Origin: an uncultured archaeon
GTDB taxonomy: Archaea; Asgardarchaeota; Lokiarchaeia; Sigyniarchaeales; SOKP01
Assembly (NCBI GenBank): GCA_964632315.1
Contig: CAZWEM010000055.1
Location: 1 to 25,883, forward strand
DNA: 25,883 nt
Reading direction: 5' to 3'
Shown: positions 12,077 through 19,477 of the stretch, piece after piece
Position numbering within the stretch: the stretch's first letter is position 1
Layout: every line of letters begins with the position of its first letter
The notes under the pieces: generated by a model
Database searches by the model: none
Told to the model about the DNA's origin: nothing
The model's input: only the letters and a program-made list of their open reading frames with translations
Position numbers and translations under genes: made by a program

Positions 12077-12106
12077 TTATATACAAAGCTTTTTTAGGTG
12101 ACTCAC
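12077..12106 (+). promoter_or_regulatory. putative TATA box and adjacent palindrome upstream of the his leader
   Basis: TTATATA at 12077-12083 and GTGA-C-TCAC pseudo-palindrome at 12098-12106. Confidence 0.35.
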
Positions 12107-12156
12107 AATAAAATATGTAAGAATAGATATTAGATTTAGAATAATGTGATTGAAAC

Positions 12157-12303
12157 ATGAATTTTTCAAAATACAATGTTTTGAGCCATAATCACTTACT
12201 TCTTAACAGATTAAATTTCATTTTTGAAGATTTTAAAAAGCAAAATGCTAGTATGAGCCTATCTGATAAATTTTACTTGCATCATTGCCAACATCATTAT
12301 TAA
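12157..12303 (+). CDS. putative His-rich leader peptide (uORF) of the his operon
   Basis: MNFSKYNVLSHNHLLLNRLNFIFEDFKKQNASMSLSDKFYLHHCQHHY* (48 aa, 6 His). The in-frame ATG 12253 gives MSLSDKFYLHHCQHHY* (16 aa). Four CAT codons fall in the last 7 sense codons. A GTGAT RBS-like element precedes ATG 12157. Confidence 0.7.
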   Translation: MNFSKYNVLSHNHLLLNRLNFIFEDFKKQNASMSLSDKFYLHHCQHHY

Positions 12304-12383
12304 TTCCAGGATTTTATTTTGAATAGATGCTGGAATTAAATAAAACTGAATTCTAGTTCAGTTTTGGGGGATGTAATCATGAT
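12288..12383 (+). promoter_or_regulatory. putative attenuator: alternative hairpins between the leader ORF and the hisIE start
   Basis: Perfect 10-bp inverted repeat TTAATTCCAG (12300-12309)/CTGGAATTAA (12330-12339), and a 9-bp stem AAAACTGAA (12342-12350)/TTCAGTTTT (12357-12365) directly before the GGGGGA RBS and ATG 12379. Confidence 0.6.
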
Positions 12384-13281
12384 ATTATTAAAAATAGAAA
12401 ATAAAGATATGGAAAAATTTGGAGGTTTGGAGAGATTGATTAATGAGGTTGTCTATCCGAGAAATTGGGATCTCTTCATAACTTTAATCCTCGAAATAAA
12501 TAAGAATTGTATAATGAAAATGATTGAAGATGGAATTTTAAAAAGTGCGTGTGAGAAAGTTGACATCTGGATTCAATCTGATGATCGATCAGTGAGAAAG
12601 TTATTACTAAAAAACAGGGTAAAAGGAGTTAATTTCAATCTAAAAGAAGACGACATTATTCTGGAACTTAACACAACTATGAGTTTTCTGAGAATTGATA
12701 AAATCCTGATCGATATTCTTGATTTCAAGAAAATGAATGGTTTGATTCCCACTATAGTCCAAGATGAGTATGGAAATGTATTGATGCTTGCTTATTCTTC
12801 TGAAAAGTCACTTGAAGTTGCGATTTCGACTAGAAGAGGTACTTTTTTTAGTAGAACTCGAAATGAAATCTGGATAAAGGGAAAAGAATCGGGAAATTAT
12901 CAAACTCTTGAAAAAATTTATTATGATTGTGACAAAGATAGCTTGCTTTTTAGAGTGAAACAAAAAAATGTTGCATGTCATACAGGTTCTTATTCTTGTT
13001 TTCAAAATACTAACTTCTCGTTAAGATCATTGAATAAGATCTTGGTTGAGCGCAAAAATGATTCCTCAAATACAACATCCTATACTAAAAAACTATTAGA
13101 AAATAATGAGCTCTTGATTTCGAAAATTAAGGAAGAATGTAATGAAGTTGTTAATTTCACTGATCAAGAAAACCTAATATGGGAGATCGCAGATTTGACT
13201 TACTTTTTGCTTGTTTTAATGGTTCAAGAAGAAATATCCCTCAGTGATATAATAAATGAGTTAAGGAGTCGAAACGAATGA
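12379..13281 (+). CDS. hisIE: bifunctional phosphoribosyl-AMP cyclohydrolase / phosphoribosyl-ATP pyrophosphatase with N-terminal extension
   Basis: HisI motifs GLIPTIVQD, VLMLAY, FSRTRNEIWIKGKESGN, DCDKDSLL, ACHTGSYSCF. HisE motifs SYTKKLL, KIKEECNE, EIADLTYF. The GGGGGA RBS favours ATG 12379 over TTG 12364. Confidence 0.95.
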   Translation: MILLKIENKDMEKFGGLERLINEVVYPRNWDLFITLILEINKNCIMKMIEDGILKSACEKVDIWIQSDDRSVRKLLLKNRVKGVNFNLKEDDIILELNTTMSFLRIDKILIDILDFKKMNGLIPTIVQDEYGNVLMLAYSSEKSLEVAISTRRGTFFSRTRNEIWIKGKESGNYQTLEKIYYDCDKDSLLFRVKQKNVACHTGSYSCFQNTNFSLRSLNKILVERKNDSSNTTSYTKKLLENNELLISKIKEECNEVVNFTDQENLIWEIADLTYFLLVLMVQEEISLSDIINELRSRNE

Positions 13282-14297
13282 ATAGTGAGAAAATGCCCAT
13301 AGATTCTTATAAATCACGCCCTATAAGGCTTGGCATACCGTCTAAAGGAAGAATGGAAGTTGAGACTCAAAATTTTTTGAAAAATTGTGGATTTAGCCTT
13401 ATTAGGAAGAATAGGCAGTATATAGGATATATTCAAGGACCAACCTCGATTCAACTAGTATTTGAACATCAAGAGGATATCATCAGGAGTGTTAGAAATG
13501 GGACAATAGAACTAGGTATAGTTGGTTTTGATTTATTTAGAGAAAATATTCCTTCAGATGATGAGAAAGTGCTGTTAATTCACGATTCACTGAGCTTTGG
13601 GAAATGTAAACTTGAAATTGCTGTTCCAGAAATTTGGTCGGAAAAATGTATAAAAGAAATAAAAAAAAGAAAAAATTGTGTTTTAAAGGTTGCCACAAAG
13701 TTTCCAAAACTTACCACAGAATTTCTTACCGCTCAAAATATCTGTTTTGAAATCATAGAAGGAAGGGGATCTCTTGAAGTATATCCCGAATTAGGACGGA
13801 GTGATTTGATTGTTGATTTAGTGTCTACTGGACAAACTTTAAAAGATAACCGCTTAAAAATGGTTGAAGGAGGGACAATATTAAGTTCTCAAGCGGTTTT
13901 GATAGGAAATAGGAACGCATTAACGAATCCTTCCGTTTTAAAAATTACGCGAGAATTGATTGAATATATTGAAGCAACTTTGAGGGCTCAAAATTATGTC
14001 TCAGTATTCGTCAACATGCGGGGAGAAAATGAAGATGAGATAAGCCAATCAATTTTCGCAAAAGAAGGTCTTAGTGGCCTACAAGGTCCAACGATATCTC
14101 CTGTTTATAGTAAAAATGGAGAAAAAATGTTTGCTGTTCATGTTATAGTCGAAAAGGACAAATTACAACTAGCTATAAGAAATTTACGTGAAATAGGAGG
14201 TAGTGGGGTTGTTGTAGCTCAAACTTTGTACATATTTGAGGAAGAACCCTTGAGATATAAAAAATTAAAAGAAAAATTGGAGTTAGAAGATGATTAA
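13278..14297 (+). CDS. hisG: ATP phosphoribosyltransferase, long form
   Basis: IRLGIPSKGRM, GIVGFD, FGKCKLEIAVP, VATKFP, GSLEVYPELGRSDLIVDLVSTGQTLKDNRL, and a C-terminal regulatory domain with GPTISP. ATGA overlap with hisIE. Confidence 0.97.
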   Translation: MNSEKMPIDSYKSRPIRLGIPSKGRMEVETQNFLKNCGFSLIRKNRQYIGYIQGPTSIQLVFEHQEDIIRSVRNGTIELGIVGFDLFRENIPSDDEKVLLIHDSLSFGKCKLEIAVPEIWSEKCIKEIKKRKNCVLKVATKFPKLTTEFLTAQNICFEIIEGRGSLEVYPELGRSDLIVDLVSTGQTLKDNRLKMVEGGTILSSQAVLIGNRNALTNPSVLKITRELIEYIEATLRAQNYVSVFVNMRGENEDEISQSIFAKEGLSGLQGPTISPVYSKNGEKMFAVHVIVEKDKLQLAIRNLREIGGSGVVVAQTLYIFEEEPLRYKKLKEKLELEDD

Positions 14298-15636
14298 GAT
14301 ATATAGTAAAGAAGAGGCAAGTAAATCTATTCTATTAAGAAATTATTTTTCGAAGGAGAGACTACCACAGCGAGTTAAGGATTCAATTAAAAAAAATTTT
14401 GGTAAAGAATTCTCTCCACAAGAAGTCGTGAAGATAATAATTGAAGATGTTAAAAAGAGAAAGGATCGCGCACTCACAGACTGGACTCTTAAATTGGATA
14501 ATGTTTCAATCACTCAATTTGAATTAAAGGAGGATTTTACCAAATACCTTCCAATTATAAGTCCAAAATTAAGAAAAGCTCTTGAAGTTGCTTATTCGAG
14601 AATATTATCATTTCATAAATCACAACCTACGAGCTCATGGGTCAATAATGATTTAGGGGGAGTTTTAGGTCAAATTATTACTCCAATTCAAAAGGTTGGA
14701 ATTTATATCCCTGGAGGTAGTTTTCCTTTAATCTCCTCAGTTTTAATGACTGCTATACCTGCTATCGTGGCGGGTACAAAAGAAATTATTTTTACTTCAC
14801 CTCCTGATAAGAATGGAGAGATATCCCCTAAAATTTTAGCTTCTTGCGGCATGATTCAAAAAGCAGGAATTAAAATACGTATCTTTAAACTCGGAGGGGC
14901 TCAAGCGATTGCAGCATTAGCATTTGGAACTACTCAAGTTCCAAGAGTGGATAAGATTTTTGGTCCTGGAAATGTATTTGTGAATCTCGCCAAAAAGCAG
15001 GTTTTTGGGAACGTAGGGATTGATGGAATTTATGGTCCCACTGAGGCAATCATAATTGCTGATGAAAGTGCCAAACCTGAATTAATAGCTGCAGATCTCT
15101 TGGCTCAAGCAGAGCATGATCCCTTAGCTATTCCCATATTTCTTACTCATGTTAAAGAACTAATATCTCGTGTGCAAGAAGAAATAAATAAACAATTAAC
15201 TCAAGTAGATCGGAAAGATATAGCCGAAAAATCTCTGGAAAGCAATGGTGGAATTATTCAAACTAATTCACTCGAAGATTCAATTCAAATATCAAACGAT
15301 TTTGCACCAGAACATTTATCATTATTGATAAAAAATCCATTTGAAGTCATCCCTCAGATTAAAAATGCAGGGGCACTTTTTTTGGGTGAAGAATCATTTG
15401 AAGTACTCGGAGACTATATTGCAGGACCAAGCCATGTAATGCCCACTAATGGTTCTGCTCGATATTCTTCTCCATTATCTGTGATTGATTTTGTAAAAGC
15501 TATAAATCTTATCTACTTGACTAAGAATGAGTCAAAAAATCTTTCAGATTATGCCGAGATATTAGCTTTAAATGAAGGGTTAACCGGTCACGCCAATACA
15601 ATCAGTCAGCGTAGAAAATTTGATGGAGGACTCTAA
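14290..15636 (+). CDS. hisD: histidinol dehydrogenase
   Basis: VGIYIPGG, GGAQAIAALAFGT, KIFGPGN, GIDGIYGPTE, DLLAQAEHD, APEHL, GDYIAGPSHVMPT. Confidence 0.98.
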   Translation: MIKIYSKEEASKSILLRNYFSKERLPQRVKDSIKKNFGKEFSPQEVVKIIIEDVKKRKDRALTDWTLKLDNVSITQFELKEDFTKYLPIISPKLRKALEVAYSRILSFHKSQPTSSWVNNDLGGVLGQIITPIQKVGIYIPGGSFPLISSVLMTAIPAIVAGTKEIIFTSPPDKNGEISPKILASCGMIQKAGIKIRIFKLGGAQAIAALAFGTTQVPRVDKIFGPGNVFVNLAKKQVFGNVGIDGIYGPTEAIIIADESAKPELIAADLLAQAEHDPLAIPIFLTHVKELISRVQEEINKQLTQVDRKDIAEKSLESNGGIIQTNSLEDSIQISNDFAPEHLSLLIKNPFEVIPQIKNAGALFLGEESFEVLGDYIAGPSHVMPTNGSARYSSPLSVIDFVKAINLIYLTKNESKNLSDYAEILALNEGLTGHANTISQRRKFDGGL

Positions 15637-15637
15637 G

Positions 15638-16762
15638 ATGAAAAGTGGCAACACGTCGATTATTACCTCTAAAAGAGTTCAAAAGTATCTGAAACTTAAA
15701 AATACAATAAGTGAACGATCCAATGAGTCGCAAAGTGATGATATAGTTTATTTAGATAAAAATGAAAATCCATATTTTCCATCTTTCGATAGACTCCTTC
15801 CATCTAAGTTTCAGAAATTAATAACAAAGTATCCGGATCCGATGTCTCGGGTATTTTTAAGTCAAGTATCTAAAGAGATCGGATATCCCATCTCATTTAT
15901 TATGGCAGGCGCGGGATCTGATGAATTATTAGATTTAATTTGTAGAACGTTTTTAGATTGCAAAGATCGTATTCTTAGTGTAAAACCAACTTTTTCAATG
16001 TATAGAAAGTATGCTGAAATTAATGGAGCAAGCTATTTGTCATATCCTCTAAATTTAAAAATCAATAGATCAACCGGAATTGCAACCTATAGTTTAAATG
16101 AAACAGACTTTTTTGAACAGGCCAAGTCTTCAAGGATTTTAATTTTAGCACGTCCAAACAATCCTGATGGTAATGTAGTTTCAAAAAACTTCATAGAAAA
16201 ATTGCTTAATCTAAATATATTGACAATCATAGATGAGGCATACATTGAATTTAGTGAAGTGTCAAGCACTCTTGACTTGATAAGCAAATATGATAATCTC
16301 ATAATATTAAGAACGCTCAGCAAGTCTCATGCTCTTGCAGGAATAAGATTAGGTTATGCAGTGGCAAATCCCTCCATTATAGAGGTATTAAAAAAAGTAA
16401 AAAGTCCATATAACGTAAATGTACTCGCTGCTCAATTAGGAAGTTTGGTAATAGGCTCAGCTGAAATCTTAGAAAATATTATGAAAATCAAATATAGTAG
16501 AGATTTAATGGTTCAAAAATTATTGAAATTAAGAATGAGCACTAAGCAGTTCTACATCCACCTAAGTCAAGGAAATTTTATCTTGATTAGATTTTTAAAT
16601 TCTCAAATTACGAATTCAATCTACCAATTTCTTTTAAATTCTCAAATTAAAGTAAGAAAATTTGGCAATGAGCTTCCAAATTGTATCAGAATCTCTATTG
16701 GCACGAAAAACCAAATGGAAAAGTTATTAAAAAGTTTTAAAACATACTTCGAGGGGAATTAA
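15638..16762 (+). CDS. hisC: histidinol-phosphate aminotransferase
   Basis: LDKNENP, GSDELL, PTFSMY, PNNPDG, IDEAYIEF, RTLSKSHALAGIRLGY (PLP lysine), RISIGT. GGAGG at 15625-15629 favours ATG 15638 over the track's 15620. Confidence 0.96.
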   Translation: MKSGNTSIITSKRVQKYLKLKNTISERSNESQSDDIVYLDKNENPYFPSFDRLLPSKFQKLITKYPDPMSRVFLSQVSKEIGYPISFIMAGAGSDELLDLICRTFLDCKDRILSVKPTFSMYRKYAEINGASYLSYPLNLKINRSTGIATYSLNETDFFEQAKSSRILILARPNNPDGNVVSKNFIEKLLNLNILTIIDEAYIEFSEVSSTLDLISKYDNLIILRTLSKSHALAGIRLGYAVANPSIIEVLKKVKSPYNVNVLAAQLGSLVIGSAEILENIMKIKYSRDLMVQKLLKLRMSTKQFYIHLSQGNFILIRFLNSQITNSIYQFLLNSQIKVRKFGNELPNCIRISIGTKNQMEKLLKSFKTYFEGN

Positions 16763-16764
16763 AA

Positions 16765-17370
16765 TTGGAAAGAGAATCAGAATTACAAAGAAAGACTAAT
16801 GAAACGCAGATCAATATTAAAATTAACATAGATGGATCCGGCAATTCTAAGATTAACACTGAAATTCCTTTTTTAGACCACCTCCTCACGCAAATAGCAA
16901 TTCATGGATCTTTTGATTTAACAATAGAAGCTAAAGGAGATCTTGAAATAGATATACATCATCTAGTTGAAGATACCGGAATTCTCTTAGGGAAAGCATT
17001 TAAAAACGCATTGGGAGAAAAAAGAGGAATCAATCGTGTAGGACATTGCATTTTTCCTATGGATGAAGTATTAGTTTTAGTGGCAGTTGATTTATCTTCT
17101 AGACCGTTTTTTAACCCAGATATTAGATGGATTAATCCTTTCTTAGGTTCGAAAGAAGACTTCTTAATTCCTGTAGATTTAATAGAACATTTTCTTTACT
17201 CCTTTGCTATTAATGCTCAAATTACCCTTCATGTAAAATTATTAAATGGGAAGAATAATCATCACATTGCTGAAGGAATTTTTAAAGCGTTAGGAAAAGC
17301 ATTAGACAAAGCTTCAAGATTCAACTCAAAAAGATTAAATGTTATTCCATCGAGTAAAGGAGAATTGTGA
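16765..17370 (+). CDS. hisB: imidazoleglycerol-phosphate dehydratase (monofunctional)
   Basis: RKTNETQI, FLDHLL, GDLEIDIHHLVED, PMDE, NNHHIAEGIFKA, PSSKG. TTG start with GAGGGG RBS. Confidence 0.97.
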   Translation: MERESELQRKTNETQINIKINIDGSGNSKINTEIPFLDHLLTQIAIHGSFDLTIEAKGDLEIDIHHLVEDTGILLGKAFKNALGEKRGINRVGHCIFPMDEVLVLVAVDLSSRPFFNPDIRWINPFLGSKEDFLIPVDLIEHFLYSFAINAQITLHVKLLNGKNNHHIAEGIFKALGKALDKASRFNSKRLNVIPSSKGEL

Positions 17371-17978
17371 AAAAAATGATCGTTATTATTGATTACGGTT
17401 CTGGTAACTTACGTTCAATCCAGAAGAGCATTCGTAAATTCTATAGGGATGTTCGTATTACAGATGATTTGAATGTTATTGAAAAAGCTGATGCTCTTAT
17501 CCTTCCTGGTGTAGGCGCATTTGGAGATGCAGTTAACAAATTAATTGAAGACGGATTATTCGACTATCTAAAGCTTAAGATATTAAAAATGCCAACATTG
17601 GGAATATGTTTAGGAATGCAACTCTTATTTTCCTATTCTGAAGAAACTAATGGAGTTAACGGTTTAAATATAATTCCTGGTAAGGTTGTTAAATTAAAAA
17701 AACAATCCTCAATAAGGATACCGCACACTGGTTGGAATAGAATAATCCCAGTAACTCAACCCTACTTTTTCGGTTATGCATACTTCAATCATTCATTTTA
17801 TTGCATTCCTGAAGATCCTAAGATCATTGTTTCTTATGTTCACCATGGTTCATCCATTCCCGTAATAATCGTGAGGAATAACATTATTGGAACACAATTT
17901 CATCCAGAAAAGAGCAAGAATACTGGAAATGCTATATTGAAATATTTTGTTTCCCAAATTAGGAGGAATTTAATTTGA
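17367..17978 (+). CDS. hisH: imidazole glycerol phosphate synthase glutaminase subunit
   Basis: IIDYGSGNLRS, LPGVGAF, GICLGMQ (catalytic Cys), PHTGWN, QFHPEKS (His-x-Glu). Confidence 0.97.
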   Translation: MKKMIVIIDYGSGNLRSIQKSIRKFYRDVRITDDLNVIEKADALILPGVGAFGDAVNKLIEDGLFDYLKLKILKMPTLGICLGMQLLFSYSEETNGVNGLNIIPGKVVKLKKQSSIRIPHTGWNRIIPVTQPYFFGYAYFNHSFYCIPEDPKIIVSYVHHGSSIPVIIVRNNIIGTQFHPEKSKNTGNAILKYFVSQIRRNLI

Positions 17979-19477
17979 AAAAGATTATTCCAGCAATTGA
18001 TCTTTATAATAATAGAGTAGTAAGACTTATTCAAGGAGATTTTGAGCATTTAACTACTTATTCAATCGAACCCTTAAAAGTAATTAAAAATTTTCTACAT
18101 AAAGGTGTTTCAAATGTTCACATCGTAGATCTGAATGGGGCAAAGGAGGGTAATATTAAGAATAGCATAAATTTTGAAACAATTATCTCTTTAATTAAAG
18201 AATGCGATAAATGGGGGGTTGAATCACAGTTAGGAGGGGGAATTCGATCTAAAGAAATCATTGAAGGATTATTAAATATCGGTCTTGGCAAGATCATTTT
18301 AGGGTCCTTACCATTTGAAGAGAAGAAAATATTTGCCAAGATTATTCAAAATTTCGGAGAAAACATAATCGTAGCATTAGATGTGCTCAATAATAAAGTA
18401 AGGATTAAAGCTTGGGCTCAGAATACTGAGATTGATTTAAAAACCCAATTACGAGCGTTCGAAAATGAAGGAATTTCGAATTTTATAATAACTGATATCT
18501 CTCGTGATGGAACTTTAAATGGTCCAAACATCGAACTCTATGAGAAAATGAAGATTCTCAAAAAAGCTGAATCAGAAATAATTGCTTCTGGAGGTATTAG
18601 AAGCTTGAATGATGTTAAACACGTACTTAAATATGCGGATGGTGTAGTTATTGGCAAAGCATTATATGACAACAGGATAAGTGGTAATAATCTCGAATCT
18701 ATCGTTCTTAATTATAATCCGACTAATTTAATAAAGAGAATTATTCCATGTCTCGATGTTAAAGATGGAAGAGTGGTAAAAGGTGTAAATTTCAAAAATT
18801 TAAAAGATAGTGGAGATCCTGTAGAGCTTGCAAAATATTATAATTCTCAAGGAGCTGATGAATTAGTTTTCTTAGATATCTCTGCAACTTTAGAGGAGCG
18901 GGAGAGTATTTTAAAAGTGATACGAGAAGTTTCCGAAGAGGTATATATACCTTTCACTGTTGGAGGAGGAATAAAAAATGTAGAAGATATAACTAAAATA
19001 ATCAATGCAGGAGCTGAAAAAGTTTGCATAAACACTGCAGCAGTTATAAATCCCAAAATAATACAACTGGGTTCTCAGAAGTTCGGTTCTCAAAGTATCA
19101 TGGTAGCTATCGATGTAAAGAAAGTAAATAACAGCTGGGAAGTTTATATAAAATCAGGAACTGAAGCAACTGGCATCGATGCTTTATTTTGGGTACAAGA
19201 TGTAGTAAAAAGAGGAGCAGGAGAAATTCTCATCACGAGCATGGACAGAGATGGAACACAAACCGGATACGACTTAGATCTTATCCGGAGCATATCAAAA
19301 GCAGTTCCTGTACCTATCATAGCTTCTGGTGGTGCTGGAAATTACAATCATTTCTATCAAGCGATCAATAATGGGGCTGAAGCAGTTTTGGCAGCATCAT
19401 TATTTCATAAAAGAATGATAACAATTCGTGATTTAAAGTACTTTCTTCGAAATAAAAACATAAGGGTTAGGATCTAG
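17975..19477 (+). CDS. hisA-hisF: HisA-HisF fusion: ProFAR isomerase (N-terminal half) plus imidazole glycerol phosphate synthase cyclase (C-terminal half)
   Basis: N-half: IIPAIDL...[46 protein letters not shown]-half from ~18728: [64 protein letters not shown]. One open frame, no Met at the junction. Confidence 0.95.

Follow-up and report, generated by a model that had tools for sequence, protein, structure and literature searches.

The window, i.e. the whole stretch of 25,883 nucleotides analysed here, lies on contig C55 within a 4.4-Mb assembly (G000). It is AT-rich (GC about 30 %), carries a Ras-family gene and contains a run of seven abutting his genes. The first of these is hisIE (12379..13281, +; PF01502 and PF01503, with NF002747 above its cut-off), which is followed by hisG, hisD, hisC, hisB, hisH and a hisA-hisF fusion (13278..19477, +) whose starts and stops overlap or abut. 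Upstream of hisIE, predicted to be the first regulated gene, lies a 730-nt gap that holds a short leader ORF and two RNA hairpins. A public sequencing run yields a 328-nt contig identical to positions 12129-12456; since this run may be the source sample, the match argues only against an assembly error. Named relatives that share this type of hisIE are mostly MAGs of Promethearchaeota (Lokiarchaeia), and among the best 120 HisG matches every named source is Asgard.

The hisA-hisF fusion is a single 500-aa ORF at 17975-19477 with two PF00977 stretches. HisIE has an N-terminal extension of about 110 aa (12379-12720) that gave no match in a Pfam search and has longer counterparts of 190-230 aa in relatives. 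Because the N-terminal part of HisIE at locus L211 is a HisA/HisF barrel (PF00977), this extension may be a decayed barrel. The best solved structure for HisG (13278-14297) is 6czl, with 237 bits versus 120 bits for 2vd3; we take the former to be the plant HisG enzyme and the latter that of a methanogen. Genomes G095 and G103 contain two HisG matches each. Elsewhere in the assembly, contigs C74, C80, C105, C108 and C109 encode Ala/Arg/Gly-rich, actinobacterial-looking proteins and are probably contamination of the bin, for which 8.6 % is reported.

The leader ORF (12157..12303, +) comprises 48 codons and ends in HHCQHHY-stop. Its ATG/GTG start is kept and is preceded by a Shine-Dalgarno-like GUGA (12146..12149, +) that is invariant in five close relatives, while GUGA/GGU-type motifs stand upstream of the aligned leader start in most loci. 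A putative BRE/TATA-like promoter element (12085..12097, +) is likewise kept in five close relatives, and a T-rich element resembling it was found upstream of loci L029-L034. The sole indel in the leader alignment of the close relatives is in frame; the peptide itself gave no match in a Pfam search. A 16-codon leader starting at the ATG at 12253 was rejected, as this codon has no Shine-Dalgarno sequence and aligns to TTG in relatives. In L024-L034, L038 and L042, a conserved ACUCAA upstream of the leader Shine-Dalgarno sequence and a UUGAGU inside the leader could form a helix enclosing the leader start codon; the pair is missing from the window and its closest relatives.

A leader ORF with a His run is present in all 16 genomes with an orthologous hisIE and in all 22 distinct loci compared (these genomes, two further metagenome loci and four close relatives); the loci are related by descent, so that such counts overstate their independence. 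The most conserved sensor codons are those of the first His pair (12280..12285, +), located at codons -7 and -6 before the stop, which encode His in 20/22 and 22/22 loci, respectively. The second pair (12292..12297, +; codons -3 and -2) is His in 18 and 20 of the 22 loci; L036 lacks it at both positions and has no His after codon -6. CAU accounts for 97 of the 102 His codons in the leaders, compared with 75 % genome-wide. In the 16 genomes with this hisIE type the ORF ends 78-95 nt upstream of hisIE. Leader length varies from 36 to about 55 codons and the peptide body drifts, while the spacing between His codons, stop codon and hairpin stays fixed. Leaders with His runs also precede hisIE in two Asgard genomes of other classes (L193 and L205). 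No His leader was found at his operons of the same genus whose HisIE is longer and of different derivation (L006-L009, L011 and L020), and the element is thus not obligatory. When the genome was scanned for upstream frames ending in an amino-acid run, two other His runs reached the cut-off among 5807 frames, one being the antisense of a small ORF rich in Asp, the other lying on a contig with foreign-looking codon usage.

Two hairpins fill most of the space between the leader and hisIE. Hairpin A (12300..12339, +) has its foot on the leader stop codon, and hairpin B (12341..12366, +) reaches the G-run Shine-Dalgarno sequence of hisIE (12366..12370, +), which is aligned in all loci. The complementarity given for them in a preliminary description made from the DNA alone is present as written (10/10 pairs in A and 9/9 in B); A gains four inner pairs (12311-14 with 12325-28), and B extends to 11 pairs, including the first G of the G-run. 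A GGGGG occurs upstream of just 17 of the 3679 ORFs in the genome, and the 16S rRNA is absent from the assembly. The region 12288-12383 folds at -26.7 kcal/mol, compared with -15.6 +/- 2.8 for dinucleotide shuffles (z -3.94; 0/200 as good). From the leader stop to the hisIE start, folding gives z values of -3.5 to -6.9 in main-type loci and of -2.8, -1.7 and -1.0 in three divergent loci. Across an alignment of 16 Promethearchaeota genomes, 89.5 % of the cells of A and B are paired and 13 of 23 pairs covary; because the structure was derived from these very sequences, the paired fraction is inflated, whereas the double-sided changes are unaffected. None of 500 shuffles reaches this degree of pairing, and slid controls give 27-50 %. 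For A, 92 % of the cells are paired and 9/14 pairs show double-sided changes; the corresponding figures for B are 86 % and 4/9. Among the compensatory changes is one of the stop codon from UAA to UAG, matched by its partner. Hairpin B pairs the sole conserved U4 tract (12362-65; U4 in 18/22 loci) and adjoins the Shine-Dalgarno sequence; in L035 and L036 a small hairpin covering the latter takes its place. Like the His leader, the two hairpins are real and conserved.

The same description had held A and B to be mutually exclusive. This has to be given up, since the minimum-energy folds, both of the window and of the remaining main-type loci, contain the two side by side, and B is paired in all modelled ribosome states. 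It had also named two alternative pairings. One of them, between the His codons (12288-12295) and the 3' arm of A (12326-12333), does have 7/8 complementarity in the window, but across the 16 genomes 39 % of its cells are paired, just as in shuffles; in the alignment, the partner in close relatives is GAUACUGG, with which the pairing looks weaker. The other (12293-12307 with 12369-12383) has 12/15 complementarity in the window, but its 68 % paired cells equal both shuffles and a slide by three columns. Its core arises because the His codon CAU forcibly matches the start codon. A further helix, of the His-His-Trp codons with the 5' arm of A, was rejected as a switch: 79 % of its cells are paired, it shows no covariation and it is poor in the window, though it may be a fold of the untranslated RNA. 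More generally, when terminators and RBS sequestrators were considered as a conserved OFF state formed by mutually exclusive pairing, no candidate beat the controls.

How the position of a ribosome would affect the hairpins was modelled by masked folding, in which the RNA was cut 9 nt downstream of the A-site codon's first base and the remainder folded. The 9-nt edge of the ribosome helicase is assumed from bacterial work. With His codons -7, -6, -3 and -2 in the A site, hairpin A retains on average 11.5, 11.5, 12 and 9.1 modelled pairs, whereas 5.1 are left at codon -1 and 0.6 at the stop. Melting at the stop follows in part from the mask itself and from the assumed edge, and the informative part is the conserved position: the conserved helix overlaps the ribosome footprint at the stop and not at the stall site, as far as this edge holds. 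The Haloferax ribosome has a footprint of 15-16 nt from the P site (PMC7261190); with this value even a stall at His -2 would be enough to melt the window's shorter A, which blurs the result for this codon. The modelled pairing of hairpin B averages 0.80-0.88 over all ribosome states across loci and is 0.94-0.98 at every position in the window. In these models B is constitutive and would not act as a switch, while A stays intact at the His stalls and is lost at the stop, so that A would be the starvation (ON) fold, like the bacterial antiterminator. It had been proposed that the ribosome's position on the His codons or on the stop decides which structure forms; masked folding agrees for A, while the alternative pairings thought to be involved fail the conservation and shuffle tests.

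The layout is not restricted to histidine. In the same genome scan, Leu runs were found upstream of leuS and leuA. In 18/18 loci of archaeal-type leuS and 29/30 of leuA, the exception being cut by a contig end, the gene is preceded by an ORF with a Leu run, and a long hairpin lies no more than a few nucleotides behind this ORF. Four Trp codons, with a conserved hairpin over the last Trp and the stop, are found at seven trp operons, these being the ones where a leader was found; most other trpE loci end short of the operon start. The other aminoacyl-tRNA synthetase and biosynthetic genes of the genome showed no convincing leaders. The preliminary description had seen an attenuator architecture in the window, a reading that the conserved short ORF, with its cluster of cognate codons upstream of the pathway operon and a covarying hairpin at its stop, bears out. 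Given the His leaders, the covarying hairpins and the Leu and Trp counterparts, in which the enriched residue tracks the pathway, sensing of histidine by the ribosome is very likely.

These other leaders have features of their own. The leuS leader (G000:C37:1420-4314 (+), L071; relatives L105-L122) has 27 codons, and the loop of its hairpin carries a conserved U-rich tract able to pair with a downstream GAAAGAGAU, possibly as a pseudoknot or an alternative helix. The leuA leader (G000:C2:154559-156175 (+), L072; relatives L075-L104) has 36 codons, and its true start is probably not the first ATG matched but a position about 12 codons further upstream. Its last Leu codon is often 9-10 nt upstream of the hairpin base, and a UAGGU motif stands about 25-30 nt after this base. 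Trp leaders are found upstream of operon-first trpE or trpA (L147, L149, L156, L160, L162, L163 and L164), and there a U-rich hairpin farther downstream offers a loop with which the 3' arm of the leader hairpin can pair. Among the His leaders compared, mutually exclusive folding is clearest in L205:2390-2530 (G236, another Asgard class), a leader with four His codons and a short stop hairpin that competes with a much longer helix (about -33 kcal/mol). Finally, on G000:C11, a GC-rich structured stretch (-18 kcal/mol), possibly a Cys leader or else some unrelated RNA, lies 80-180 nt upstream of a cysS-like ORF (67796-69241, -) and overlaps a frame of 21 codons, three of which encode Cys.

From the ORF, the His positions, the hairpins, their covariation and spacing and the presence of an aCPSF1 gene, all established with sequence tools, we infer translation of the leader, regulation and an output step as follows. 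The leader would be translated while being transcribed. When His-tRNA is scarce, the ribosome would halt at the His codons before reaching hairpin A. About 66 of the 75 untranslated nucleotides would then be folded into A and B, and RNA polymerase would reach hisIE (ON). With plentiful histidine the ribosome would arrive at the stop codon and unwind the 5' arm of A, leaving about 30 nt of nascent RNA single-stranded in the window and up to about 40 nt in relatives, while B would keep the remainder of the gap, with its U4 tract, folded. The RNA thus exposed behind a polymerase that lacks a coupled ribosome could be loaded by aCPSF1/FttA, which would cleave it and terminate transcription (OFF). 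Taken as a whole, with hairpin A formed or melted as the switch and aCPSF1 as the output, this mechanism is a tentative proposal, quite possible although somewhat short of probable.

The output is probably either factor-dependent termination or translational. As the preliminary description had pointed out, a GC-rich terminator with a long U tract is lacking: 0 terminator-like sites were found, and B is AU-rich and pairs its own U3-U4. B together with its UUUU was rejected as an intrinsic terminator, being under the scan threshold and unswitched in masked folding. Frameshifting into hisIE, as in hungry-codon frameshift leaders, or read-through into it was also rejected, as the stops lie 31-101 nt upstream of hisIE in 20/22 loci with a variable frame offset. 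A hairpin that is conserved when no partner helix is suggests that the signal is read by a factor gaining access to the RNA and not through an alternative helix. aCPSF1/FttA is encoded in the assembly (TIGR03675, 882 bits vs a cut-off of 580; G000:C59). FttA prefers U-rich RNA. Several observations count against it here: the strand released in the His leaders is not U-rich on average (U 0.36; U4 in 8/22 loci, with two in the window), the conserved U4 in the 3' arm of B is paired in both states, and in the leuA leaders the hairpin begins 3-7 nt past the stop, so that a ribosome there should open the base only. In the leuS leaders, the count for U4 is 15/17. FttA contacts RNA positions -1 to -36 (PMC11616081), termination in vivo by an aCPSF1 of lokiarchaeal origin has been shown in M. 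maripaludis (PMC7515710), and mutual exclusion of ribosome and aCPSF1/FttA has been put forward as a hypothesis (PMC11616081, PMC8116511).

The same sensor could instead have a translational output, in which the inner arm or the 3' arm released from A pairs with the G-run and start codon of hisIE, B folds the gap between them, and the lack of hisIE translation silences the operon by way of coupling and polarity. Occlusion of the RBS, already considered in the preliminary description, is indeed seen in the window, where opening positions -14 to +6 costs 3.6 kcal/mol with the ribosome stalled at His -6 and 7.2 kcal/mol with it at the stop. A long anti-RBS helix in L032 (-14.6 kcal/mol, z -3.9), a helix of 11 bp over the Shine-Dalgarno sequence in L203 (1/25 shuffles as strong) and the long alternative helix of L205 point the same way, and a G-run, rare in this genome, pairs readily with U/C-rich strands. 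However, across loci the native strand does no better than shuffled ones (mean -0.12 kcal/mol; 9/21 positive), 8/25 shuffles match the effect in the window, cognate and swapped pairings hardly differ (p=0.15), and the register of the partner varies between loci. In L035 and L036 the freed arm could, as judged by eye, open the Shine-Dalgarno sequence instead, and the leuA and leuS start sites show no consistent switch. We consider this output rather unlikely, though by no means far-fetched; the two can also combine, because an untranslated hisIE would itself invite termination. The pairing of the His codons themselves with the 3' arm of A or with the Shine-Dalgarno sequence and start codon, blocked by a stalled ribosome, as the preliminary description had it, is distinctly improbable. 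The complementarities exist in the window, where in the fold of the free RNA the first His pair and the Shine-Dalgarno spacer close a junction, but they are not conserved across genomes, and native tails occlude the RBS less than shuffled ones (1.4 vs 2.8 kcal/mol; native higher in 3/18). The leuA codons were rejected as partners of the RBS in the same shuffle test (native above the shuffle mean in 7/29).

A switch of opposite sign, as in ermC, would have a long stall on the last His pair melt A, the freed strand opening B or the Shine-Dalgarno sequence (ON), with B and its U4, or B on the Shine-Dalgarno sequence, as the OFF form. His is kept at -3 and -2 in 18 and 20 of the 22 loci, a longer footprint would let a stall at -2 cover the base of A, and B adjoins the Shine-Dalgarno sequence and ends in UUUU. 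Yet in the models melting of A leaves B closed (mean pairing 0.80 vs 0.85) and makes the RBS slightly harder to open, the last His of L036 (-6) is too far away to touch A, and B is a weak terminator, which makes this sign improbable. Ribosome position might also be read through mRNA stability, a stalled ribosome and A guarding a 5' end, or through a polymerase pause at A. Such outputs require no partner helix, and enzymes of the aCPSF1 family have 5'-3' exonuclease activity (PMC11616081, PMC7515710); even so, we give them little chance. Least of all do we expect the element to be non-regulatory, i.e. a gene for a small His-rich protein followed by stability hairpins. With 36-55 codons the leader is long and could encode a small protein or a metal tag, but the His positions are fixed relative to hairpin A while the peptide body is poorly conserved, and the enriched residue becomes Leu or Trp upstream of leu and trp genes.

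Regulation by leader-peptide attenuation is textbook knowledge for bacteria. Our literature search, the coverage of which is incomplete and does not prove absence, found no description of it for an archaeal biosynthetic operon. If real, the element would imply either functional coupling of transcription and translation in Asgard archaea or a translational switch of this type in these organisms. That attenuation of His, Leu and Trp genes in Asgard archaea works by a ribosome melting a stop-codon hairpin and thereby gating cleavage and termination by aCPSF1/FttA, the homologue of eukaryotic CPSF73, is an idea we advance with considerable reserve; if true, a bacterial-type sensor would be wired to a eukaryote-type termination nuclease. 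The leader of about 230 nt offers a test of the exclusion between ribosome and aCPSF1/FttA. Since the same layout stands upstream of archaeal-type leuS and leuA, it has not just travelled along with a transferred his operon.

In how histidine is sensed, the element would resemble the enterobacterial hisL (RF00514, His_leader), likewise a short ORF preceding the his operon, in which the cluster of His codons comes to an end 1-2 codons ahead of the stop codon; in both, the 5' arm of a hairpin (in hisL that of the antiterminator) is covered only once the ribosome finishes the leader. In contrast to hisL, with its leader of about 16 codons, the leaders described here have 36-55 codons, an archaeal host and a TATA-type promoter, and there is neither a GC-rich terminator with a U tract nor a conserved chain of mutually exclusive helices. 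RF00514 scores 17.6 bits, compared with a gathering score of 49 (E 3.2), an Rfam search of eight related loci gave no match, and T-box and metabolite riboswitches had no Rfam match at the window or related loci. The archaeal trpY leader dipeptide of Methanothermobacter is reportedly an upstream ORF in which the cognate codon was proposed to sense the amino acid; it is said to comprise two codons and to act on translation of a repressor, unlike the covarying hairpin pair upstream of a biosynthetic operon found here. Attenuators resembling hisL have been predicted in Firmicutes (PMC9413887). The mycobacterial polycysteine sORFs, which are leaderless, likewise end a short ORF upstream of a pathway operon in a run of one amino acid (10.1101/834739). 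Pairing between leader codons and the RBS failed the shuffle test in the Asgard leaders. The polycysteine sORFs differ in this respect, for they are said to act through pairing of leader codons with downstream RNA. Salmonella mgtL-mgtA is a leader-peptide attenuator that depends on Rho. Conditional termination by uORFs and Rho is also reported for M. tuberculosis (10.1101/2022.06.01.494293). As in such Rho-dependent leaders, the position of the ribosome would set a hairpin that hides RNA from a termination factor, with no need for an intrinsic terminator, although the factor would here be the nuclease aCPSF1/FttA and not the helicase Rho. In its logic, the Asgard element is closer to these Rho-dependent leader attenuators than to hisL.
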